Below are positions 10,803 to 64,000 of a DNA stretch of 64,000 nt, in pieces (position 1 is the stretch's first letter; every line of letters starts with the position of its first letter). The notes below the pieces were generated by a model, which had not been told where the DNA came from, did no database searches, and worked only from the letters and a program-made list of their open reading frames with translations. The position numbers were made by a program, and so were the translations under genes. Origin of the DNA: Clostridiales bacterium (GTDB lineage: Bacteria > Bacillota > Clostridia > Christensenellales > CAG-138); assembly GCA_019416935.1 (NCBI GenBank), contig DXWI01000003.1, positions 60,583-124,582 of the forward strand, in the 5' to 3' direction.

Positions 10803-11450
10803 TCAGTCCTCGGCGGGCTCGAGCACGTCGAGCAGCGAATGGATGCGGCGGTTGGCCCGGGAGAGATCCTGTTTGCCGGAACCGGGGTTGACAAAGCCAT
10901 AGCAGTACAGCGATGCGGCAAGCGCCGCCTCCACGCCGATGCGGCTGTCCTCGATCGCCGCCGCATCCGCAGCCGGCACGCCGCAGCGCGAAAGCGCCAG
11001 CAGGTATACATCCGGCGCGGGCTTGAGCCGCGCCGCGTCGCTCCCCGTGACCACGGTCTCAAACCGGTCCATGATGCCGTAGAGTCTCAGCACGCCCTCG
11101 ACAAAGCTGCCGGGCGACGAGGTGGCCACCGCCATGCGCACGCCCCGCCGTTCGAGCGCATCCATGAGGCCGAGCAGCTCCGGCTGCGGGTTGGGAACCG
11201 CGCGCCGGATCTCCTCGAGCGTGCACGAAAAATGCTCCGCCGCGAGCTGAACGGGATCGCCCGCCGCGCCGCACATCTCCAGTGCGCGCCGGTACAGCTC
11301 CACGGTGGAAATGCCGACGGTATGCGCCTCCCTTGCGCCGATGCGCCCGCCGGAAATGCGGCGCACAATGCGCTCGCACGATGCGATATGGTGCGGCTCG
11401 CTGTTGACGATCACGCCGTCCATATCAAAGATCATGAGCGGTTTCAGCAT
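10803..11450 (-). CDS. HAD-IA family hydrolase
   Basis: 215 aa. MIFDMDGVIVNSE (DxDG motif I). The C-terminal EDS.IG motif is typical of the beta-phosphoglucomutase-like HAD subfamily. Confidence 0.8.
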   Translation of the reverse strand: MLKPLMIFDMDGVIVNSEPHHIASCERIVRRISGGRIGAREAHTVGISTVELYRRALEMCGAAGDPVQLAAEHFSCTLEEIRRAVPNPQPELLGLMDALERRGVRMAVATSSPGSFVEGVLRLYGIMDRFETVVTGSDAARLKPAPDVYLLALSRCGVPAADAAAIEDSRIGVEAALAASLYCYGFVNPGSGKQDLSRANRRIHSLLDVLEPAED

Positions 11451-11746
11451 GCCGTTCCGCCTCCGTGGCAGTCCTGCCGGCCGGTAGAAAGCGCGAACTG
11501 CCAGCGCTTGTCCTGCGCGGCCAGATCGACGAACAGGCCGACCAGCGGCAGCAGCAGCTCGTTCGGCATACGCTCGGCAAACTCCAGCAGGATGTACCCG
11601 CCGTCCGTGCGCTCGGTGAGCAGATCCCAGAGCGCATCGAGGTTGCTGCCGTAATGCTCCGCCAGATGAAAGCGCTCCTTCAGCTGCGCGTGCATATCGT
11701 CGCGCGTCTGCATGAGCAGGCCGTTGAGCGGATAGATGCGGATCAT
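11444..11746 (-). CDS. barstar (barnase inhibitor)
   Basis: 100 aa from ATG 11746. HYGSNLDALWDLLTE matches the barstar core YYGENLDALWDCLTG. GAGGAGG RBS lies inside the end of the RNase gene. Confidence 0.8.
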   Translation of the reverse strand: MIRIYPLNGLLMQTRDDMHAQLKERFHLAEHYGSNLDALWDLLTERTDGGYILLEFAERMPNELLLPLVGLFVDLAAQDKRWQFALSTGRQDCHGGGTAC

Positions 11747-11748
11747 GG

Positions 11749-12348
11749 TCAGTCCTCCTCGCCGTAGAGCAGCGTAAAGCTCTCGTAATGGTCGTCCGTG
11801 TAATAGATCAGACCGTCGTTGGAATACACGATGCGCTCCGCGCCGCGAAAGCCGCCGGCATAGTTCACATCGCATTCATACCACATGCGCCCGTCCGCCT
11901 CCGGCAGCAGCCCCTCGCGGTTGCTGAAGCGGTCGCCGCCGATGCTCATCTCATCGGTCACATCCCAGAGGTTGCCGTCCGCGCTGTCCCAGCCGAGCGC
12001 TCTGGCGTCTTCCTTTCGGATGAAGTTCGGCGGCAGCTCGCCATAGGCGTGCAAATAGGCGGCCACGCGATCCGGGTCGCTGCACCGCTCACCATAGGCC
12101 GGATCCTGTGCATCCCCGTCAGGGTCGCCATCCGCCGCACCGGCAGCAGCGGCAGCCTCCGCGCCGTTCGACGCGTCCTGTGCGGGCAGGGAACTGCTGC
12201 CGTCGTCCTCGAGCAGTTCTTCGAGTACATCGCCCGCCTGCCGCAGCAGCTCGGTATCGATGTCGCCGCCGGCCGTACAGGCCGTGAGCAGCGGCAGCGT
12301 CAACAGCAGCAGCGCCAGCAGCAGCGCCCAGATTCGTCTTTTCCTCAT
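11749..12348 (-). CDS. barnase-type (N1/T1 family) secreted ribonuclease, lipoprotein form
   Basis: 199 aa from ATG 12348. Signal peptide with lipobox LLTAC, then an acidic Ala/Asp linker. The C-terminal domain FSNREGLLPEADGRMWYECDVNYAGGFRGAERIVYSNDGLIYYTDDHYESF parallels barnase FSNREGKLPGKSGRTWREADINY..RILYSSDWLIYKTTDHYQTF. Confidence 0.85.
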   Translation of the reverse strand: MRKRRIWALLLALLLLTLPLLTACTAGGDIDTELLRQAGDVLEELLEDDGSSSLPAQDASNGAEAAAAAGAADGDPDGDAQDPAYGERCSDPDRVAAYLHAYGELPPNFIRKEDARALGWDSADGNLWDVTDEMSIGGDRFSNREGLLPEADGRMWYECDVNYAGGFRGAERIVYSNDGLIYYTDDHYESFTLLYGEED

Positions 12349-12628
12349 TCCGTTCCTTGCAGCTCCCTTCCGCCATCCTGAAAAACAGCAGGTGCATGCG
12401 GGGCGCTGGCAGCGCCCCTTTGCCTTCTGCATTGTACCATGCGCTTTCGGTTTTCACAAGCGGTGCGCACAGATTGGCGGGGGTTCAAAAAAGGGAGCGA
12501 TCGTCTGTCTGCCCCCCCAGTTATCGCCGCCCGCAGGCAGCGCTGGAGCAGAAATAGCGATCTGCCGTCCGCGCCGGATCGGCTGCGGGGTGTGCAGGCG
12601 CCCACGGTGGGCGTCGCTTTCTTCGCAG

Positions 12629-44641: not shown

Positions 44642-45705
44642 TCAGTTCACGATTGCTAAGCACACGAAACTGCAATCACCGTTCATGGTATAGGTGAAGG
44701 ACTTCGGTGCAGGATTATACCGATCACCCGCAGCATGACTTCCCTCCCAGTACACGGAGCTACTGCTCGACGTACTCGTCACCGTAATCTTCGTACCCGC
44801 CGGCACACTGCCGCTGCTTGCGCCGGAGTATCCGCCGCCGGAGAAAACGCACCACTTGCAGCTCACGCTATAGTAGACGGGCTCCGGCGTCGGCGCCGGT
44901 GTTGCGGAGGGCTGCTGCGCGGTGGGCGCGGCCGTGGGCTTTGGCGTGGAGGCGGCCTCCCCCCTTCTTCTTCAGCACGACCTCATAGACCGTGCTTTCA
45001 CTCAAATCAAAAGCGCGAAAACTCGTGATCGTGCGGTTATAATGATATGGCACATGGTTGATCAGCCAGTAATCCACCTCGTAGCCGCGCAGAATATCCG
45101 CCTCCACATAGACCGAGATTGTGCCGCCCGGAACCGTCCCTCCCGTGGCGGCGTTCACATAGTCCTCTTCAAACACGAATTCGGTGAACGGATCGCCGCC
45201 GGCCTTGTTCTTCGCGTTAAGGAACCGCATTTCGGCGTTGATGGCGGTAATGGTCTTGACCGGGCGCAGCACCGCCTCGATCACGGTGTCGTCCTGCGCG
45301 GAGAAGGCACAGCTCTCTCCCGTTTGATCCGCCAGCCGTTCGCCGTTGAGCGCCCAGTAATCCAGCGCCATGCCCTCGGGAATGACCGCCGTCGCCGTGA
45401 GCGCAGCCATCTCTCCAACCGGAGCATCAGCGCTCGGCTCCCCATCGATGGCCGCGTTGAGCGCAAAAACCGAAAACATCTCGGGGCGCGGCCGCGGCTG
45501 TCGGTTCCGGCTCCGCAAGCAGCACCGTTTCGGCTTCGCCTCCCTTTTCGGCCGCGGCAAGCGCCGCGTTCGCCTCGTCGAGCTGCTGCTGCAAAAGCTG
45601 TGCTTGTACCTTGACGGCCTCAAGCTCTGCGGAATTGCCGCTCTGGCAGCCGGTCAGGGTCAGCAGCATCAGCGCTGCCAGTATCAAAGAGAAAACTTTC
45701 TTCAT
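44642..45705 (-). pseudogene. lipoprotein gene interrupted by two +1 frameshifts
   Basis: Three track ORFs (45427-46035 part, 44868-45623 part, 44642-44866) join into one lipoprotein (MKKVFSLILAALMLLTLTGC...). This requires removing one base from G4 (45483-45486) and one from C6 (44959-44964). Total length is 1064 nt, which is 3n+2. Confidence 0.55.
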
Positions 45706-57238: not shown

Positions 57239-57943
57239 ATGTATCAATACCTGTTGTGGGATATCGATGGCACCGTGCTGGATTTTCTTTCATCGGAGGA
57301 GCACGCCGTTCGCGCGCTGTTTCAAAAGTACCGGCTCGGCGCATGCAGCGACGATATGCTGCGGCTGTACTCCGAAATCAATGTGCGGTATTGGGAGGCG
57401 CTGGAGCGGAACGAAATGACCAAGCCCGAGATCCTGGTCGGCCGTTTCCGAACGTTTTTTGAACAGATCGGCGTCGATCCGGCGTTGGCCGAAGCCTTTA
57501 ACCGCGATTATCAGGTCGCGCTCGGCGACCATCTGGCGTTTGTCGAGCATGCGGAGGAAATGCTCCGTGCGGAGAAGGGCGTCTATACGCTCATCGCCGT
57601 GACGAACGGAACGAAGGTCGCGCAGACAAAAAAGCTCCGCCGATCCGGGCTTGACCGCGTCTTTGACGCGGTGTTCATCTCCGAGGACGTGGGCTATGAA
57701 AAGCCCAATCTGGCCTATTTTGAGCGGGTGTTTTCCGAAGCCGGTATCGCGGACAAAAGCCGGGCGCTGCTCATCGGCGATTCCCTGACCAGCGACATGA
57801 AGGGCGGCTGGATCGCCGGCATAGACACCTGCTGGTACAACCCAAAGCACAGCCCCAATCCGCTGCGCATCCCCGTGACCTATGAGATCGACGACCTCAG
57901 CCGGCTTGCGGAGATTCTGGATGCGGCGCAGGGCGGCGCCTGA
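57239..57943 (+). CDS. YjjG-type HAD-IA nucleotidase
   Basis: MYQYLLWDIDGTVLDF (motif I), AVTNG (motif II) and LLIGDSLTSDMKGG (motif IV). Confidence 0.8.
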   Translation: MYQYLLWDIDGTVLDFLSSEEHAVRALFQKYRLGACSDDMLRLYSEINVRYWEALERNEMTKPEILVGRFRTFFEQIGVDPALAEAFNRDYQVALGDHLAFVEHAEEMLRAEKGVYTLIAVTNGTKVAQTKKLRRSGLDRVFDAVFISEDVGYEKPNLAYFERVFSEAGIADKSRALLIGDSLTSDMKGGWIAGIDTCWYNPKHSPNPLRIPVTYEIDDLSRLAEILDAAQGGA

Positions 57944-57965
57944 GCGCGCATGGGGGGAAATCGCA

Positions 57966-58793
57966 ATGAACACGCTAAAAAAGTATTGCCTGCCCGCTCT
58001 CCTGTTCCTCGCGTTTGAGACGGTCGCCGTGACGCTGTGGCTGACGAAGGACAACCCGTTCTATCTGCTGAATTTCAGCTATATCGGCTGCTCCATTGCG
58101 CTCGGCGTCTTTTTGTTCATCCGGGGCTACCGGCACGCGCGCCGGGTGGTGCAGTTCCTCGTAGGCGCCTACATGCTGGTTTATCTCGGGCTGATCTCCA
58201 ACGAGAACATGCAGCTCGAGGGCTTTTGGTATTACCTGTTCAACGGCGTCTTTGAAGCGGCGACCATCCACTATGCCGTTGCAAAGATCTTCGGGCCGCT
58301 GCTCTTTGGCCGCGGCTGGTGCGGGTATGCCTGCTGGACGGCTATGGTGCTCGACCTGCTGCCCTACAAAATACCGGAACGGCCGCGCAAGAAGCTCGGC
58401 TTCCTCCGCTATATCCATTTTGCAGCGTCGCTCCTGTTTGTTTCCGCCCTGTTCCTCTTTCATGCGCAGGATATGGAGCGCATCATGTTCTGGTGTTTTC
58501 TCATCGGCAACCTCCTGTATTACGGCACGGGCGTCGCGCTTGCATATGCGTTCCGGGACAACCGCGCCTTCTGCAAATACCTCTGCCCCGTCACGGTCTT
58601 TTTGAAGCCCATGAGCTATTTCTCGCTGCTGCGCGTCCGGTGCGATACGGAGAAATGCGTCTCCTGCGGGAAATGCAAGCAGGTTTGCCCCATGGATGTG
58701 GATGTAACGGATAACACGTATCGGCGCAAAAACGGAACGGAGTGCATACTCTGCCTGGAATGCGTCAAGGCCTGCCCCAAAAAGGCGCTGTAG
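57966..58793 (+). CDS. membrane-bound 4Fe-4S binding protein (NapH/MauN-like)
   Basis: 275 aa from ATG 57966. TM helices with GWCGYACW and FCKYLCP. The C-terminus has CVSCGKCKQVCP and CILCLECVKACP. Confidence 0.75.
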   Translation: MNTLKKYCLPALLFLAFETVAVTLWLTKDNPFYLLNFSYIGCSIALGVFLFIRGYRHARRVVQFLVGAYMLVYLGLISNENMQLEGFWYYLFNGVFEAATIHYAVAKIFGPLLFGRGWCGYACWTAMVLDLLPYKIPERPRKKLGFLRYIHFAASLLFVSALFLFHAQDMERIMFWCFLIGNLLYYGTGVALAYAFRDNRAFCKYLCPVTVFLKPMSYFSLLRVRCDTEKCVSCGKCKQVCPMDVDVTDNTYRRKNGTECILCLECVKACPKKAL

Positions 58794-58824
58794 CGCCGTC
58801 CCCGGCAGGGCTGCCGGATATAAG

Positions 58825-58851
58825 AAAAAGTCCCTGAATTAGGGACTTTTT
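58825..58851 (+). terminator. rho-independent terminator
   Basis: AAAAAGTCCC TGAATT AGGGACTTTTT. Confidence 0.7.
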
Positions 58852-59169
58852 CGTGGCAAAAAACGCTGATTTTGATAAAAATGCCCCACTCGTATTTAGG
58901 GGGTACAACTTACGTCAAGGGGGTGCAGCGCAACAAATATGCGGCTTTACCCACGTCATATCCTGCTTTCCGTGCAACCGGTGCAAGTTTGCCGGTTCAT
59001 TGACTTTGCTGCGGTCTTTATTTCTACGCTGATAAGACAAACGGGAAGTTGATTTTTGCCCGCTCCTACAATGGACGCTTTCAAATATGGTTGCTTTGCG
59101 GCTTGAAAAGCTATAAATATTTGTACACAATATAAACTGTAATTTTATGTTTACGGGGAAGCGAAGCGC

Positions 59170-59363
59170 ATGACCGGCATTTCAGGCTACCTTTCCATAC
59201 GGGAAATATCCTACAAATGGGGCGTGTCGGAACGGCGCGTGCCGAGGGGCGCATCCCCGGCCTTTCCCGCTTTCGGCGGTCTTGGGCGATACCGGAGGGC
59301 GCGGAAAAGCCCACCGACCCGCGCAGAGAAAAGCAAACGGGAGACGGCTATGATAACCGATGA
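59170..59363 (+). pseudogene. HTH_17-like DNA-binding gene with internal deletion/frameshift
   Basis: Frame 1 gives MTGISGYLSIREISYKWGVSERRV. From 59241 the -1 frame gives AEGRIPGLSRFRRSWAIPEGAEKPTDPRREKQTGDGYDNR*, with the stop at 59361-59363. The recognition-helix residues between the two parts appear to be missing. Confidence 0.55.
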
Positions 59364-59900
59364 AACGCTATACCGCCGCTATGTAGGCGGCGACGACAAG
59401 GGCTTGAACGGCCTGATGGGGCGTTACGGCGACAGCCTGACCTTTTACATAAACGGCTATCTTCACGATTTGCACGAATCGGAAGATTTGATGGTGGAAG
59501 CCTTTTCGTATCTGATTGCAAAAAAACCAAAAATGAGGGACGAAGGATTTCGCAGCTACCTATACAAAACCGCCCGCCATTTGGCGCTGCGGCATAAGGC
59601 ACGAAACCGCCTGCGGCAGGCGTTCAACTTTGACGATTTAGAAGCGGACGCGGAAAGTCAGGGCTTTTCGGAAGAAGTCATACAAACCAAGGAACGAAAC
59701 CGCATTTTGCACCTTTGCATGGAGCAGCTTTCTCCGGATTACAGAGAAGCCTTGTATCTCGTTTATTTTGAAAACATGAGCCATACCGAGGCGGGCGTCG
59801 TCATGGGGAAGAGCCAAAAACAGGTATCCAACCTGGCTGCCGCGACAAAGAGGCGTTACGACAGAAGGTGGAAAAGGAGGGTATATACAGTGCGGAGTAA
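59350..59900 (+). pseudogene. sigma-70 family (ECF-like) sigma factor with 1-nt frameshift near its 3' end
   Basis: MITDETLYRRYVGGDD...MVEAFSYLI (region 2) ... SPDYREALYLVYFENMSHTEAGVVMGKSQKQVSNL (region 4). After about 59840 the family-typical ending RDKEALRQKVEKEGIYSAE* lies in another frame, with TAA at 59898-59900. Length is 551 nt, which is 3n+2. Confidence 0.6.
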
Positions 59901-60249
59901 TGAAAAACGGGTTGCCGCCGTGAAACGGCGGTCAAAGGAGCTGAAACGGGAAAGCGGGAAGCGCCGGGAGCGCATTGTCCTCCTGTCCTCTATTGCCGCC
60001 TGTCTTGTGCTCATTGTCGCTCTGTCCCTTGCCATGCCCGGCATCGTGGAAAACTTTTCGAACGACGCCCTCGGCTACTCCGCCATGACCGCAAGCGTTT
60101 TTCACGGCAGCGGCGCCTTCGGCTATATCGTAATCGGACTGCTGGCTTTTGCTCTGGGCGTGTGTGTGACGGTGCTGTGCTATCTGGCGAGGCGCTCCGA
60201 GCATGAGGAAAAAGCGGAGGAAACACAGCGGGCGAATGACGATGATTGA
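59890..60249 (+). CDS. small two-TM membrane protein (paralog A; anti-sigma-like position)
   Basis: GTG 59890 lies 8 nt after AAGGAGGG. MRSNEKRVAAVKRRSKELKRE...LLSSIAACLVLIVALS...GYIVIGLLAFALGVCVTVLCYL. Collinear with the product of 61644-61943. Confidence 0.5.
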   Translation: MRSNEKRVAAVKRRSKELKRESGKRRERIVLLSSIAACLVLIVALSLAMPGIVENFSNDALGYSAMTASVFHGSGAFGYIVIGLLAFALGVCVTVLCYLARRSEHEEKAEETQRANDDD

Positions 60250-60858
60250 GCTGATCGATAATTTTATACAATTTCTGGTAACATCCATCTCCTGCGTTTG
60301 GGCAGGTGTGCCCTTTTCCAAAAACCGCAAACAGCCGCTTTTTCTGCCGACCTGTTTTTACGGCGTCTATGCGCTCGGTACACTCTACTGGACGCTCCGC
60401 CTCCTGCTTCTCGATGAAACGCCACCGGTGTTTTATGTATCTGATATTGGGTGGGTTGCAAGCTACGTCTTTCTGCTGACGCTGCTTTACACCATGCGCT
60501 CCGAGGAGCGTATACGCTCTGCGCAGCGGCAGCGAAAAACAGCCTTTTGCTATCTTGCGCCCGCCTTCTGCCTCCCGCAGTTTATTTTATTCAATCTGCT
60601 GATGTGCGTACCCACCATGTTGATCGCGTGGCTTGCCATCGACGGGCTGGTGTCCAGCTTGCGAAGTTTGGGCGAGAAAAACGCCGTGCCGTTCTATATC
60701 TCGGCGCTGTGCTTTGTAGTATCGGAGTACTGCCTGTGGACATCCTCCTGTTTTTGGATGGGCGACACCCTGTTAAACCCCTATTCTGGTTCGACTTCCT
60801 GTTGTCGGCTTCCATGCTGTCGCTGCTGCCGTCGCTGAAAAAGGCGGTGGCGAAATGA
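60236..60858 (+). pseudogene. multi-TM membrane protein with frameshift at a C4 run
   Basis: The frame of 60236 has high GC3 up to about 60780. The high-GC3 frame then switches and ends ...FWFDFLLSASMLSLLPSLKKAVAK*, with an ATGA overlap onto the next gene. Length is 623 nt, which is 3n+2. Confidence 0.5.
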
Positions 60859-61485
60859 CTTACATTGAAAACATTTTTGTGTGCATGGCCGCGCCGCTGA
60901 TGATGGCGATGCTGTGCCTGGGGAAAAAGCACCGCCGTCCGCTATACTTTTGCATTGCCGGTATGGGAATGTGCCTGCTCTCAGCGTATCTCAATACCTT
61001 TTTTGCCGGGCTTTACGGAGTCAACGCCCTGAACGCCACCACGCAGATCGCTCCGGTGGTGGAGGAAATTCTGAAGTTGCTGCCGCTGCTGTTTTATCTT
61101 GCGATTTTCCAGCCGGACAGCAAGCAGTTTCAAATTGCCGCCGTGGTGGTGGGAGCCAGCTTCGCCACCTTTAAAAATGTTTGCTACCTGACGCAAAACG
61201 GTGCGGAGAATTTTCTGTTTCTGCTCATTCGCGGCTTCGGTACGGGGGACGATGCACGTCGTCTGCGGCGCCGGTTACGGCCGCTGGATTCAATACGTTT
61301 GGGAAAAAAGAGGGCTGCGCGCGGTCTGCCTGTTCGGCCTTCTGTGCCTCGTCATCACCTATCACGCCATCTATAATATGCTGGTGAGCGTGGGGGGTGC
61401 GCTGCAATATATCGCCTACTTCCTCCCGATTTTCACCGTTGCCTGCGGCTGGGGCGGCTATCTGCTGCGGCGGCGCGGGCGATAA
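60855..61485 (+). pseudogene. PrsW-family intramembrane protease with frameshift at a G5 run
   Basis: VVEEILKLLPL (EExxK) lies in the first ORF and YHAIYNML (HxxxN) in the second (61201-61485). The frames join at GGGGG 61244-61248. Length is 631 nt, which is 3n+1. Confidence 0.6.
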
Positions 61486-61643
61486 TCTGTCCAAATACAA
61501 GCATAAGAGCTTCCTGCGGGCGGCTTTTTTTGCGCCCAAAGATCATTCTTAATTCTCTTTATTTTGGGTGAGTAATTTGACGAGTTCATGTACCTATATA
61601 AGTAAAAGGCTTTTTAAGACTATTTTGGAAGGGAGTGACTGTG

Positions 61644-61943
61644 ATGATGGATACCGGACAGCGCGTGGAGTGTGTCAAGCGGCGGGTGCTGGAAAAAGGC
61701 CGAAACTGGGAAAAGTGCATGATACAGCGACTATCGCTGTCGTTCGTTGCGCTTTGCTGCTGCCTTATTTATTCAGTGGGGCATTTTTCCGGCAGATCAC
61801 CGGGTTCAGTGCAGGGTCTAAGCGGCGCAACGATGCTGTTTGAAAATGCGGGCGGCTATGTGCTGGTGGGCGTCGTATGCTTTATTGCGGCGGCAGTCAT
61901 TACCGTGCTTTGCCTGCGTTCGCGAGGCAAAAACAACAAATAG
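61644..61943 (+). CDS. small two-TM membrane protein (paralog B)
   Basis: ATG 61644 lies 9 nt after GGAAGGGAG. MMDTGQRVECVKRRVLEKG...LSLSFVALCCCLIY...GYVLVGVVCFIAAAVITVLCL. Confidence 0.5.
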   Translation: MMDTGQRVECVKRRVLEKGRNWEKCMIQRLSLSFVALCCCLIYSVGHFSGRSPGSVQGLSGATMLFENAGGYVLVGVVCFIAAAVITVLCLRSRGKNNK

Positions 61944-61972
61944 ACTGAACAAACCAAGGAGGATGGGGAAAT

Positions 61973-64000
61973 ATGAGGAAAAGATTTTTGGCAATGCTGC
62001 TGTGCCTGTGCATGGTGGTTACGCTACTGCCAACGACGGCGTTTGCGTCAGGAACGGACACAGGCAAGGCAATACAGCTTGTGAATAGCGGAACTGCCGC
62101 AAATATCAGCGGCGGACAGGCCGGCAGTATTTATTTCGGCACCTATCAGCAAAGCCACGTCGCGTGGGGCAGATACAACATCGACCCCATCAAATGGCGT
62201 GTGCTGTCCAATGCGGATGGAAAGCTGTTTTTGCTCTCCGACCAAACCCTTGATGCATTTAAATACCACAGTAATTTAGAGAGCGTGGCATGGGGAACCA
62301 GCACCATGCGTTCTTGGCTGAATGGCTACGATGCATCTTCTAATACCGGTGGCAACGATGGAATGGATTACAGCACAGATAACTTCGTGGATACCGCCTT
62401 TTCAGAAAAGGAACAGGGTTCTATCTTCACAACGACAGTAATCAATGCCGACAATCCCTCTTATTCCACCGAAGGCGGCATTGATACACGGGATAAGGTG
62501 TTCTTGCTTTCTCTTGCTGAAGCAACAAATACTGCTTACGGATTTACAGATTCAAACAGCGACACAGATACCCGAAAAGCAACCAATACAGCTTATGTAG
62601 CAAATGGCGGCAAGTCAGGTACAAACCAAATGCGCGGTGCCGGCGTAGCCGACCGCTGGTGGCTGCGCTCCCCCGGCGACGATGCGCACGACGCAGCGCT
62701 CGTGCTTGGCAAGGGCAGTGTTGCCGATTCTGGGGCTTACGTGTCCAACGCTTACGGCGTTCGCCCCGCTTTTAACCTAAATCTGAATTCTGTTCTCTTC
62801 ACATCTGCCGCCGCAGGCGGCAAGAACGGAACACTTGGTACTGTTTCTGAAATTCCAACTACCACCACATCGGAATGGAAATTGACGTTGAAAGACAGCA
62901 GCCGCAATTTTGCCGTAACAGAAACCGCCGCAACAGCACCCCCCCGGAGGTACAGTCACGCTGAACTATACCGGGGCGACCACAGGGGAAAATGAATATC
63001 TCTCCGTAATGATTGTGAACAGCACCGGTGCTGCGACACATTACGGCAGAGTAACACAGCCCGCAAACGAAAGCGGTGAGGTTGATGTTACAATCCCCGC
63101 AGGGCTTGCCGATGGCAGCTATACGCTGAAAGTGTTCAACGAGCAGTACAATGGCAGCGCGAACGATGATACGAAGAAAACAGACTACGCCAGTGCATTT
63201 GATGAAGTAGCCCTTACCGTTGGAAACACCCCCGCACCCATTGACGCTTCCGTAACTCCGACTACGGCAAGCTATGATAAGTACACAGCGACAAGCGGCT
63301 TGACCTTTACCTTGTCGCCGGGAAGCTACAGCCTTTCCGCTATCAAAAATGGTGAGACTGCATTGACAAGCGGAACAGATTACACCACTGACGGCAACAG
63401 CTACACCATTACGGAAAGCTATCTTGACGCACAGGCAGTGGGCAATTTGACGCTGACCTTTGACATGGACGGCGGCACCGCTCCAACTGCGACAATTACG
63501 ATTTCGGACAGTAGACCTGCACCCACACATACCCATGATTGGGCTGAGGGCTGGTCTAAGAACGACACCCACCACTGGCATGAGTGCGAGGCGGCTGGCT
63601 GTACCATAACGGAAAACAGCACAAAGGACGGCTACGGCGCTCACGTTTATGACGATGACACGGACATCTTCTGCAATACCTGTGATTATAAGCGGACGAT
63701 CACGCCGCCTGCACATACCCATTCGTGGGCGGCAGCGTGGACAACAAACGTCACCCACCATTGGCATGAGCGTACCGCCACCGGCTGTACCGTAACCGAA
63801 AACAGCGCAAAGGACGGCTACGGCGCTCACGTTTATGACGATGACACGGACATCTTCTGCAATACCCGTGATTATAAGCGGACGATCACGCCGCCGTCCG
63901 GACCGACTGTTGCGCCTACGGTAGAGCCTCCCGACACCGCACCGGACAGGACGATTACGGTTGTCGCGGGTGATACGGCGACCCTGTCCGTTACGGCAAC
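61973..64000 (+). pseudogene. secreted DUF6273-domain surface protein, frameshifted at a C7 tract and continuing past the window end
   Basis: Signal peptide MRKRFLAMLLCLCMVVTLLPTTAFA. DUF6273-like blocks IKWRVL, LFLLSD, STMRSWLNG, KVFLLSL, WWLRSPG and GVRPAFNL. After CCCCCCC (62939-62945) the +1 frame stays open to position 64000 (GGTVTLNYTGATTGENEYL...). Confidence 0.6.
63528..63899 (+). repeat. 186-bp tandem duplication (2 copies) encoding a His/Cys/Trp-rich 62-aa module
   Basis: Copy 1 starts at 63528 and copy 2 at 63714. The 3' ~90 nt of the copies differ at a single base. Confidence 0.85.

Follow-up and report, generated by a model that had tools for sequence, protein, structure and literature searches.

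A probable horizontally acquired, recombinase-less islet with a decayed sigma factor, PrsW and surface protein module at a tRNA-Met gene of a Clostridiales bacterium

Introduction

Genomic islands and prophages linked to tRNA or tmRNA genes enter at the tRNA 3' end through site-specific recombinases, among them large serine recombinases; they leave the tRNA intact and combine a foreign composition with a direct repeat. The attP sites of large serine recombinases are laid out as imperfect palindromes of ~50 bp around a 2-3-nt centre. There are also att-flanked cassettes that carry no recombinase, and pseudo-SCC elements are one example. Another is the CIMEs (cis-mobilizable elements), which are defined as decayed elements (PMC5704250).

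The closest described regulatory systems are SigW-RsiW-PrsW of Bacillus subtilis and the PrsW-dependent ECF sigma factors of Clostridioides difficile. In its prototype role, PrsW cuts an anti-sigma factor at site 1 (PMC3482391), and PrsW-dependent sigma release is attributed to Ho & Ellermeier 2011 in the passage of PMC9044953 that cites it. Another role described for PrsW domains is that of peptidases that process secreted toxins (PMC3482391).

Here we analyse a 64,000-nt stretch of a Clostridiales contig (the window; DXWI01000003.1), which ends inside a 5,610-bp island. We conclude that the island is very probably a horizontally acquired, recombinase-less, att-flanked islet resembling a CIME, whose regulatory cassette is inactivated and decaying. 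The original prediction was made from the window alone; the analysis extends it by fixing the boundaries exactly, identifying tRNA-Met as the target, describing the att-like ends, recognising the cargo as a single conserved regulatory module and characterising each lesion.

Results and discussion

Composition of the island

GC content in 1-kb windows is 0.58-0.69 before the island and 0.52-0.55 past 59 kb. The island has a GC content of 0.528, compared with 0.616 ± 0.022 (minimum 0.573) in 267 equally sized host windows. Its tetranucleotide distance to the host is 0.382, ~10 sd above the host windows (0.148 ± 0.022, maximum 0.215). Under a host-trained codon model, the island ORFs reach log-odds of 19-78, against ~100-200 for host ORFs of similar length. 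The DNA from 58857 on is compositionally foreign. The original prediction had placed an AT-richer stretch from ~58.86 kb and proposed GC and k-mer profiling, which indeed uncovers the discontinuity.

Insertion site, boundaries and ends

The Fer4-type gene to the left ends in a bidirectional terminator hairpin (58824-58851, unstranded; RNA fold -17.9 kcal/mol, z = -5.1, 13-bp stem and U-run), the strong terminator already suspected before the island. The hairpin is also present in an empty site (L090), where it faces the tRNA-Met gene. In the empty sites of sister lineages (L090, L091, L096), Fer4 is followed directly by tRNA-Met and the 9-bp sequence TTTTCGTGG occurs once. In L002, TTTTCGTGG occurs twice and brackets 5,610 bp. 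The window is identical to L002, from which positions beyond 64000 are given as virtual window positions. The left copy (58848-58856, unstranded) is the attL core. The right copy (virtual 64467-64475) overlaps the CCA end of tRNA-Met, which a tRNA scan places on the minus strand at virtual 64473-64549, just past the island. The island itself (58857-64000 and on to virtual 64466, plus strand) was delimited by blastn of L002 against L090, L091 and L096, the tRNA scan and composition. The tRNA-Met gene is identical at 77/77 positions in the occupied and empty states.

Extending the sequence downstream, as had been proposed, yields the direct repeat and att-like ends but no recombinase, which is absent from the full 5,610-bp island and from the DNA adjoining it. 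The original prediction reported no recombinase, tRNA or flanking direct repeat in the window, and for that missing recombinase it stopped short of calling a mobile element. It was right on the recombinase and on this caution; the tRNA and the right repeat copy do exist, 466-550 nt past the window end. The horizontal origin that it considered plausible is supported by the empty sites in sister lineages, the precise insertion bounded by a direct repeat and the foreign composition.

The left inverted-repeat arm (58857-58882, unstranded) has the core AACGCTGATTTTGATAAAAA at 58862-58881, which matches the right end at 18/20 positions, and is followed by GGGGGT(A/G)CA repeats to ~58935. The reconstructed junction consists of 26-nt inverted arms, complementary at 22/26 positions, around the direct repeat. 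This forms a ~50-bp imperfect palindrome with a 2-3-nt centre. The same type of left terminus occurs in L117, L119, L133, L140, L162, L190, L199 and L210, with large serine recombinase genes 2-5 kb away only in L140 and L210. The right-end hairpin motif also lies 3' of tRNA and tmRNA genes near ordinary core genes, where no left end was seen, so instead of an att arm it may represent a scar or a terminator typical of the lineage. Site-specific recombination would have placed the islet exactly at the CCA end of tRNA-Met, behind the Fer4 terminator. With att-like ends and no recombinase, the islet would be mobile only if a recombinase were supplied in trans. Neither an excised form nor a cognate autonomous element sharing these ends was found.

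We regard it as improbable that the island is instead a non-autonomous DDE-type transposon (mobile insertion cassette), with the 9-bp repeat as target-site duplication, the arms as terminal inverted repeats and the transposase encoded elsewhere. The 9-bp direct repeat, the ~20-nt inverted repeats and the lack of an internal recombinase would suit such an element. However, the inverted repeats are offset from the termini, by distances that differ by 4 nt, and TGG/CCA is kept at the junction in all family members. The sister islet L117, which shares both ends but differs in cargo, likewise occupies the CCA end of tRNA-Met. L133 presents a joined, attP-like configuration of two 26-nt arms and a 2-nt centre, as expected of a recombinase att site, and there is no transposase near any family member examined.

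It is comparably improbable that no insertion took place, the block being either ancestral here, with precise loss from the sister lineages, or exchanged at a hot spot through homologous recombination. Among close relatives, the stretch 3' of Fer4 has at least four different contents, and the flanks of the empty sites are unequally diverged (94.9% and 97.8% identical), as such a history might leave them. The foreign composition argues against it, as do the precise edges at a direct repeat that is single-copy in the empty site and the occurrence of the same module elsewhere, in unrelated contexts and prophage-like contigs.

The recombinase-less islet shares with CIMEs the att-like direct repeats and inverted arms at a conserved gene 3' end, the lack of integration and transfer genes, and decay. 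It differs from them in its cargo, a regulatory and surface module rather than transfer-gene remnants. No ICE, IME or prophage with its att was identified, and the site bears no sign of accretion. Insertion at a tRNA 3' end with the tRNA left intact, foreign composition and a direct repeat are features of tRNA- or tmRNA-linked islands and prophages. Unlike these, it has no recombinase gene, and its identity with the tRNA covers only CCA and six downstream bases, with no duplicated tRNA 3' half.

Genes of the island and their lesions

The island encodes seven genes, all on the plus strand. The predicted gene content is corroborated by Pfam matches (Sigma70_r2/r4_2, PrsW-protease, DUF6273 and CBM_X2), HTH_17 homologues and tblastn-supported paralogy. 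Five of the genes are frameshifted relative to full-length homologues, as had been claimed, and a sixth has a premature stop.

The HTH_17 pseudogene (59170-59363) carries a 13-nt deletion at 59241/59242. In alignment with nine homologues of 57-69 aa, this deletion takes out the invariant NQYC segment and causes a frameshift. An intact HTH_17 gene lies upstream of sigma in L235 and L236. The ECF-type sigma factor pseudogene (59350-59900; Pfam Sigma70_r2 and r4_2) has lost 1 nt at ~59836/59837, changing NLVCRGKEAL... to NLAAATK..., and tblastn splits its 183-aa homologues between frames 1 and 3 at 59838-59850. The shifted frame continues into the next gene as a 299/359-aa fusion ORF. That gene (59890-60249) encodes a 119-aa two-TM protein, a candidate anti-sigma factor, and is the sole one with an undamaged reading frame. 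The protein aligns along 100% of its length with 119-aa homologues at 81% identity, and its start overlaps the end of the sigma gene in all modules.

A 207-aa polytopic membrane protein pseudogene (60242-60858) lacks 1 nt (TTT to TT) at ~60785, within a conserved ...NPYFWFDF... motif. Its 207/208-aa homologues stop at 60784 in frame 2 and continue in frame 1 (tblastn). The PrsW-family intramembrane protease pseudogene (60855-61485; Pfam PF13367) has a 1-nt insertion at ~61249 that turns GTGAMHVV into GTGDDAR... and splits the tblastn match at 61246/61247. Its two catalytic motifs thereby fall in different frames. Once repaired, PrsW is 81-86% identical to 209-aa homologues over 100% of the length, and its E107K change alters a residue shared by 116/116 homologues.

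A ~100-aa two-TM protein (61641-61943) is a paralogue of the 119-aa protein (tblastn cross-matches at 28-32% identity). It ends at a premature TAG (61941-61943), 11 codons short of the ancestral stop; the latter, at 61974-61976, shared bases with the ATG of the next gene. Homologues of 110/111 aa read through to 61964-61973 (tblastn), and the exact truncated protein is present in four assemblies.

The surface protein pseudogene (61973-64000, ending at virtual 64322; Pfam, C-terminus from L002) is frameshifted in a C7 run at 62939-62945. It combines a signal peptide, DUF6273, CBM_X2, 186-nt repeats, an Ig-like region and an IPATG tail resembling a sorting signal. The 186-nt tandem repeat spans 1.8 copies (63561-63895, plus strand; TRF). 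In the second copy, Arg replaces two conserved Cys.

Reality and consequence of the lesions

The same 12 kb is 100% identical in four assemblies whose contig-naming styles differ (k141_, NODE_, scaffold, Logan), and the lesions are therefore not assembly errors. That the frameshifts arose in sequencing or assembly, by multi-copy collapse or homopolymer errors, with the genes really intact, is extremely improbable. Two sites do touch short runs (C7 at 62939-62945; TTT to TT at ~60785), and the four assemblies may come from one sample. Against this, one lesion is a 13-nt deletion, two of the indels lie outside short runs, and E107K and the premature TAG are not indels. Across the remaining 58 kb, a crude gene map with Pfam spot checks reveals no gene that is split. 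Correction of the frameshifts by reads was rejected as an outcome.

It is very improbable that the frameshifts are functional, through phase variation, programmed frameshifting or a useful sigma/anti-sigma fusion, and that the island is still active. The C7 tract has an in-frame C6 allele in other samples (L104 and L105, 99.65% identical to the island), and the sigma deletion does yield an open 299-aa sigma-TM fusion ORF. Yet just one of the five sites could plausibly serve as a contingency tract, the HTH gene lacks its recognition segment, and PrsW has lost its invariant Glu with its catalytic motifs split across frames. Broken alleles are rare (only 2-3 contigs), and an unrelated lineage (L098-L103) carries a copy decayed differently. 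Read from its sequence, the module is dead in this genome. The decay suggested by the original prediction agrees with the identical lesions in four assemblies and the intact gene block in other Clostridia.

A conserved regulatory module

The same gene order and overlapping start and stop codons occur in L085, L087, L088, L235, L236 and L245-L248. The module is intact in other Clostridia and gut bacteria, often in mobile or prophage-like contexts, with 1,992 relatives for PrsW and 2,215 for the 119-aa protein. A variant without the 119-aa gene is prevalent, which counts against an anti-sigma role for the small proteins.

A consensus scan places a sigma-70-like promoter, TTGAAA-17-CACAAT, before the first operon (59103-59131, plus strand). 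TTGAxx-N17-TATAAT sites occupy the equivalent place in L235 and L088 (read by eye). A terminator-like hairpin 3' of PrsW is followed by an invariant promoter-like motif, GTGAGTAATTT-N10-TGTACCTATATAAGT (61568-61603, plus strand; five-module alignment), ahead of the last two genes. Each module has a single copy of this motif, which is absent elsewhere in the window and in other loci and is presumably the target of the module's own sigma. Position and topology make the small two-TM proteins candidate anti-sigma factors; Pfam gave nothing significant on them (DUF4179, E = 1.1).

In an intact module, the housekeeping-type promoter would drive the first five genes, and one of the small two-TM proteins would hold sigma at the membrane. 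An envelope signal may then lead the PrsW-type protease to cut this anti-sigma factor. The released sigma would fire the invariant internal promoter before the 110-aa and surface protein genes.

The module resembles SigW-RsiW-PrsW and the C. difficile systems in its ECF-type sigma, which is limited to regions 2 and 4, in the membrane proteins encoded right after it and in its glutamic-type intramembrane protease of the PrsW family. The same logic is expected, in which proteolysis of a membrane anti-sigma factor frees sigma (PMC3482391; Ho & Ellermeier 2011, as relayed in PMC9044953). In contrast to these systems, the island protease is encoded within the sigma operon, and it scores 34 vs 225 bits, far under the NCBIfam PrsW equivalog cut-off. 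The candidate anti-sigma factors are two tiny two-TM paralogues in which no anti-sigma domain is recognisable, the sigma gene is preceded by an HTH_17 gene, and the output is one adjacent, exchangeable surface protein gene behind an invariant promoter. The whole system is also pseudogenised in the window.

PrsW could alternatively act on the co-encoded surface protein, processing or releasing it in the way proposed for toxins linked to PrsW, with no sigma control, which we consider unlikely. The description of PrsW domains as toxin processing peptidases (PMC3482391) is in its favour, and in every case the payload, otherwise variable, is large and secreted and has a conserved signal peptide. 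However, the sigma operon encodes PrsW (209 aa) as a protein of its own rather than as a fusion with the payload, and the payload itself combines an ordinary signal peptide with an anchor of the sortase-like or SLH type. Site-1 anti-sigma cleavage by the prototype (PMC3482391) likewise favours control of sigma.

Decay of the islet

Six to seven lesions fall within 5.1 kb, and the neighbouring core genes are intact. This density is high but expected after loss of the regulator: the regulator was likely inactivated first, and the remaining genes would then have decayed neutrally. Bacterial pseudogene clusters of decaying accessory operons likewise combine, within one operon, several independent frameshifts with a nonsense mutation and the missense change of an invariant residue, and the island shows no notable difference from them. 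The islet thus appears to be an acquired island in decay, and a fairly ordinary one.

Acquisition of an islet beside a tRNA-Met gene

The GC content of 1-kb windows lies between 0.58 and 0.69 and falls to 0.52-0.55 past 59 kb. The complete island has a GC content of 0.528 versus 0.616 ± 0.022 (minimum 0.573) for 267 host windows of equal length, which places it 4 sd below them. Its tetranucleotide distance to the host mean is 0.382 versus 0.148 ± 0.022 (maximum 0.215) for the host windows, about 10 sd above, and on a codon log-odds scale trained on the long ORFs of the window its ORFs score 19-78, with host ORFs of comparable length at about 100-200. All three measures confirm the AT-richer stretch that the original prediction placed from about 58.86 kb, and both the GC and the k-mer profile register a discontinuity. 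The strong terminator proposed to precede it consists of a 13-bp hairpin and a U-run (58824-58851, -17.9 kcal/mol, z = -5.1).

The exact 99-aa small protein of the islet is recorded in four metagenome assemblies (L001-L004), which are 100% identical to the window across their common 12 kb; the window corresponds to L002, and the sequence past the window end was taken from these contigs. Sister lineages with an empty site (L090, L091 and L096) were reached via cluster members of the Fer4-type protein, the 4Fe-4S protein encoded to the left of the islet. They carry Fer4, 60 nt, a convergent tRNA-Met gene and then HTH_3-cupin, P5CR and M24 genes, the same ones that lie downstream of the island in L002. 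In blastn alignments, the left flank (L002 1-7213) matches L090 3642-10891 at 94.9% and the right flank (L002 12824-16857) matches L090 10883-14916 at 97.8%, and the island therefore spans L002 7214-12823, which is window position 58857 to virtual position 64466 with numbering carried past the window end. Exactly these 5,610 bp are absent from all three sister lineages. The sequence TTTTCGTGG occurs as a single copy in the empty site and once at each junction of the occupied site, where its right copy overlaps the CCA end of tRNA-Met. The tRNA-Met gene is identical at 77 of 77 positions between the occupied and the empty state. The excision junction of the islet is expected to read ...TTAGCGTTCTTTTCGTGGCAAAAAACGCTG..., and the restored empty site would read ...GGGACTTTTTCGTGGTAGCGGCG....

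An empty site in relatives, flanking direct repeats with an adjacent tRNA gene and atypical composition together identify a genomic island. The original prediction saw no tRNA and no direct repeat within the window; the right repeat and tRNA-Met are found just past its end. It also saw no integrase or recombinase, and this extends to the complete 5,610-bp island, where none of the seven genes carries such a domain. A search of both island ends against Rfam returned the tRNA as sole match. Ancestral presence of the island was considered and ranked low. An extra 100 nt in L001, at first a candidate repeat variant, is a scaffold gap of Ns.

Close relatives carry two more unrelated gene sets downstream of Fer4, and the locus is therefore a hot spot. 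The site (window 58794-58856 and its equivalents in L090-L097 and L239-L241) has at least four alternative contents among close relatives: tRNA-Met with the cupin regulator, a TetR/FAD-oxidoreductase block, a 204-aa/OYE/TetR block, and the island. The Fer4 membrane 4Fe-4S protein itself (window 57921-58793; loci L005-L084) is about 75% identical across many Clostridia families. In a scan of genome contigs, its neighborhoods among these loci were unrelated, with synteny common to one 2.6-kb contig only.

Lesions in the islet genes

The predicted gene list proved correct, and Pfam assigns Sigma70_r2/r4_2, PrsW-protease, DUF6273 and CBM_X2 domains. The first island gene belongs to a family annotated in part as HTH_17 (PF12728), and the two small membrane proteins match each other at 28-32% identity and are thus the paralogues that had been proposed. 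Lesions were positioned against full-length homologues from intact modules, and as anticipated five of the seven genes need a frame change relative to these.

The HTH_17 gene has lost 13 nt at 59241/59242 and with them the NQYC segment, whose Q and C are nearly invariant (at least 90% of aligned sequences), and its frame is shifted. The sigma factor gene lacks one base at about 59836, within ...QVSNLVCRGKEALRQKVEKEG..., so that the last ~20 residues are out of frame and the true C-terminus lies in another frame with its stop at 59898-59900. No stop interrupts the shifted frame before it enters the next gene, and the result is the 299/359-aa ORF reported by gene callers. In the 207-aa membrane protein gene, TTT has become TT at about 60785, within ...NPYFWFDF.... 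The PrsW gene has one extra base at about 61249, within ...GFGTGAMHVVCG..., which puts the EExxK and HxxxN motifs in different frames; in addition, residue 107 is Lys, a position that is Glu in 116 of 116 homologues. The 110-aa paralogue gene ends in a TAG 11 codons ahead of the ancestral stop, a codon that had overlapped the next gene at its ATG. Finally, the surface protein gene is frameshifted in a C7 run (62939-62945). The gene for the 119-aa two-TM protein is the sole undamaged gene of the island.

An in-frame C6 allele of the surface protein gene occurs on two short contigs from other samples that are 99.65% identical to the island. Its presence in a sister strain suggests a recent date for at least the last step of the decay, that of the surface-protein gene. 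The same gene contains a 186-nt tandem repeat (63561-63895), in which Arg stands in the second copy in place of two conserved Cys of the first (HECEAAGC to HERTATGC and CNTCDY to CNTRDY), possibly a further sign of decay. A deletion of about 205 nt is present in L104 and L105, both low-coverage 1.5-kb contigs that end within the repeat.

Sequencing error could produce a cluster of frameshifts, and the four assemblies may share one source sample. They agree base for base under contig-name styles that differ (k141_, NODE_, scaffold and Logan). The lesions include a 13-nt deletion and two single-base changes outside runs, and on a crude map of the remaining 58.8 kb the genes are long and uninterrupted. 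Suspicious gene pairs outside the island turned out on spot checks to be separate families (HAD, barstar, ribonuclease, DUF218 and AIM24). By our arithmetic, five indels scattered randomly over 64 kb would all land inside the 5.1 kb of island with a probability of about (0.08)^5, or ~3e-6. We rank sequencing error low given the four-assembly identity, the 13-nt deletion and the uninterrupted genes mapped elsewhere. Phase variation at contingency loci is also ranked low: only the C7/C6 tract fits it, and of the other four frame lesions one is the 13-nt deletion and the rest are indels that lie outside tracts or within runs of 2-3 nt. With intact full-length homologues and a frame change that recurs in four assemblies, the five genes are frameshifted pseudogenes.

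The sole spot outside the island where a gene may be split is on the minus strand at 44642-45705, where three oddly overlapping short ORFs (74, 203 and 92 aa, one overlap of 53 nt) have weak coding scores and no Pfam matches. The minus strand at 11444-12432 encodes a secreted barnase-like ribonuclease (Pfam Ribonuclease) and its inhibitor Barstar, beside the HAD hydrolase.

Intact relatives of the cargo module

Relatives of the repaired PrsW number 1,992, and those closest to it are 209 aa long and 81-86% identical over the full length. Contigs with these relatives carry a conserved block that encodes a sigma factor (183 aa), the 119-aa protein, a 207/208-aa membrane protein, PrsW (209 aa), the 110/111-aa paralogue and a very large secreted protein. 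From sigma to PrsW, the first four genes overlap start to stop. The sigma start is overlapped in L235 and L236 by an intact HTH_17 gene of 68 aa, so that the seven genes are ordered as in the window; GCA_028704435.1 has an intact module too. Another, more distantly related variant (P0051-type), which is very prevalent, lacks the 119-aa gene and has several surface-protein genes.

The payload of the module is exchangeable. In the window it combines DUF6273, CBM_X2, repeats and an IPATG-type anchor; elsewhere it is a protein of 1,705-2,340 aa with FG-GAP, fn3, Flg_new_2 or SLH domains, and the signal peptide is the only part common to the modules. In the DGR literature, DUF6273 is described as part of phage receptor-binding proteins and as hypermutable by DGR systems. 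Around the DUF6273 region of the window (62200-62800), the 5.6-kb island encodes no reverse transcriptase and no extra gene of RT size.

Between PrsW and the 110-aa gene, a terminator-like hairpin and, after it, an invariant GTGAGTAATTT-N10-12-TGTACCTATATAAGT were present in all modules covered by alignment or pattern search. The invariant element is found a single time in each module and is absent from the rest of the 64 kb and from the other fetched loci. The first operon is preceded by a sigma-70-like TTGAAA-17-CACAAT.

Module GC ranges from 0.38 to 0.56 and that of hosts or flanks from 0.34 to 0.53. The genomic context is different in each lineage and includes AbiE, primase-helicase, DUF6076/HTH_36 and partial tRNA-like sequences. 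Four IMG/VR contigs classed as viral (L245-L248) contain the five-gene regulatory core at 55-60% identity, in L246 next to genes for a phage minor capsid protein, a macro domain, an ADP-ribosylglycohydrolase and a WapI-like immunity protein. A copy that decayed independently is found in an unrelated lineage (L098-L103), with sigma split into 134 + 32 aa and PrsW cut at 44 aa and followed by unrelated glycoside-utilization genes. Judged from these varied contexts, the copies on viral contigs and the decayed copy, the module is mobile cargo that is often lost. The original prediction had cautiously proposed horizontal origin followed by decay, and this is supported by the empty site, the foreign composition, the lesions and the intact module elsewhere.

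At about 650-700 nt upstream of the intact HTH_17 gene, L235 (6100-6180) and L236 (3110-3160) have differing partial tRNA-like 3' halves, located on the reverse strand, and from about these halves onward the two contigs are identical. This suggests that their module copy lies at the edge of a tRNA-integrated element. Compared with L243 and L244, contig L242 has several split genes, among them glutamine synthetase (174 + 220 aa) and sigma (162 versus 206 aa); it looks like an error-prone long-read assembly and would be unfit as evidence of decay. PADLOC returned no defense-system matches for six module proteins, and full-text literature searches did not turn up a description of the module.

A predicted sigma-protease circuit

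The window sigma factor matches Pfam r2 at 30.1 bits and r4_2 at 40.7 bits, both above the cut-off, and an intact homologue reaches 80 bits on TIGR02937 (cut-off 42.9). With regions 2 and 4 only and a length of about 180 aa, it is an ECF (group 4) sigma factor. In most modules, the gene for the 119-aa two-TM protein overlaps the sigma stop codon. No anti-sigma domain was detected in this protein, for which DUF4179 reached only E = 1.1; one homologue is named DUF4179 by NCBI. By position and topology, the 119-aa protein is a weak candidate for the anti-sigma factor.

The window PrsW matches PF13367 at 31.7 bits (cut-off 23.5), and its repaired form contains VVEEILK and YHAIYN, which correspond to the EExxK and HxxxN motifs. 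It scores 34 bits against the 225 required by the NCBIfam equivalog NF033739, and by sequence it is thus classed as a family member, not as an equivalog of B. subtilis PrsW. In B. subtilis, PrsW acts on an anti-sigma factor as its site-1 protease (PMC3482391); expression of an ECF sigma factor in C. difficile needs PrsW according to Ho & Ellermeier 2011, as cited in PMC9044953.

We infer a circuit for the module that is modelled on SigW-RsiW-PrsW. A housekeeping promoter would drive the HTH protein, sigma, the membrane proteins and PrsW, and the small two-TM protein would hold sigma. An envelope cue could then cause PrsW to remove the two-TM protein, and freed sigma would fire the invariant internal promoter to produce the second two-TM protein and the surface protein. 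Alternatively, the surface protein itself may be processed by PrsW (PMC3482391). Whichever form the SigW-like circuit takes, it is inoperable in the source genome. The most economical history would be that a regulator was lost first and that the other lesions then accumulated neutrally.

Islet ends and candidate recombination sites

The ends of the islet are related by inversion. A sequence at 58862-58881, AACGCTGATTTTGATAAAAA, matches the inverted right end at 18 of 20 positions, and when the right end, the repeat and the left end are joined they form two 26-nt arms that are complementary at 22 of 26 positions and centred on GTG. A pattern scan of metagenome and viral collections for the inverted-repeat core gave 129 matches, mostly those expected by chance for an AT-rich 18-mer; filtering by blast and regex left about 18 relatives of the right end and 8 of the left end. 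Among these, L117 is a one-gene islet of 2.1 kb (GC 0.42 in a 0.61 host) at a tRNA-Met CCA end with both end types, and L133 has both end types joined head-to-head, with arms matching at 24 of 26 positions and a 2-nt centre. The left-end consensus TGGCAAAGAACGCTAATTTTGATAGAAATG followed by GGGGGTGCA repeats is found in seven further contigs.

The right-end motif comprises two hairpins, the first with a stem of -18 kcal/mol. It directly follows the CCA of tRNA-Met (three loci), tmRNA (five loci), tRNA-Leu, tRNA-Ser and tRNA-Trp. As a ~90-nt sequence, AAGAACGCTAATTTTGATAnAAAGTTAGCGTTCTT..GCCCGAAAAGCC..GGGCTTTTT, it is present on 14 metagenome contigs (L121, L122, L149, L159, L161, L179, L185, L200, L205, L206, L222, L230, L232 and L234). 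Some contigs have core genes within 4 kb after the tRNA-linked motif (rpsP/ffh in L121, proS in L234) and no left end, so there the motif may be a persisting scar or an ordinary, shared terminator. L157 (2866-2940) and L145 carry the same hairpin behind a tRNA-like 3' end, but its 13-nt loop runs opposite to the flanks, as though the loop had been inverted.

All junctions examined have a common centre, the CA/TG of the CCA end. Large serine recombinases use an imperfect palindrome of about 50 bp with a 2-nt centre. The layout of the ends, a ~50-bp palindrome with such a centre, fits the att site of a site-specific recombinase and not a DDE transposon. A DDE transposon or mobile insertion cassette would also have inverted ends, but here the arms are offset by 4 nt and the target is always the CCA/TGG junction; no transposase was seen near family members.

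In L140, two large serine recombinase genes (Resolvase + Recombinase + Zn_ribbon_recom) sit 2 kb away from the left end and adjoin phage lysis and tail genes, and L210 has a recombinase fragment 5.4 kb inside its left end. Apart from these, a search for integrases beside the motif in related loci found none. The relatives from the metagenome and viral scan include no element with both ends and a recombinase, and IMG/VR yielded no joined attP-type site.

By the definition in PMC5704250, the recombinase-less islet behaves like a CIME: it has a direct repeat and inverted arms (22/26), carries no integration or transfer genes, and its competence for recombination is putative. No autonomous counterpart with both of its ends is among the elements found; related left ends lie 2-5 kb from large serine recombinase genes (L140 and L210).

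Implications for gut Clostridia

A small acquired islet that decays beside a tRNA gene is ordinary. For the source genome, it should be annotated as a pseudogenized accessory islet rather than as seven or more odd ORFs or a sigma-membrane fusion protein. What goes beyond ordinary decay is the widespread, mobile sigma/PrsW/surface-protein cassette with its invariant promoter, whose function is putative, together with the hint of a CCA-targeting family of recombinase-less units. Ends that are conserved at the CCA terminus of both tRNA and tmRNA genes hint at a mode of targeting.

We speculate, with considerable doubt about the combination as a whole, that the islet belongs to an undescribed family of mobile units in gut Clostridia that includes small recombinase-less cassettes and some prophages. 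In this unlikely joint scenario, a ~50-bp palindromic att would recombine at the CA of the encoded CCA in many tRNA and tmRNA genes, probably through large serine recombinases acting in trans, and the right arm would also supply the RNA gene with a new terminator hairpin. In the present islet the cargo would be a plug-in regulatory cassette (HTH, ECF sigma, two-TM proteins and PrsW), which controls an exchangeable surface protein through an invariant promoter.

The analysis defines a widespread module, with about 2,000 relatives each for two of its proteins in public data, that moves among gut Clostridia of very different GC and is repeatedly lost. It ties an ECF sigma factor and a PrsW-type protease to one swappable surface protein behind an invariant promoter. 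If the proposed circuit is true, the module would provide a compact, testable case of protease-gated surface-protein display in gut commensals.
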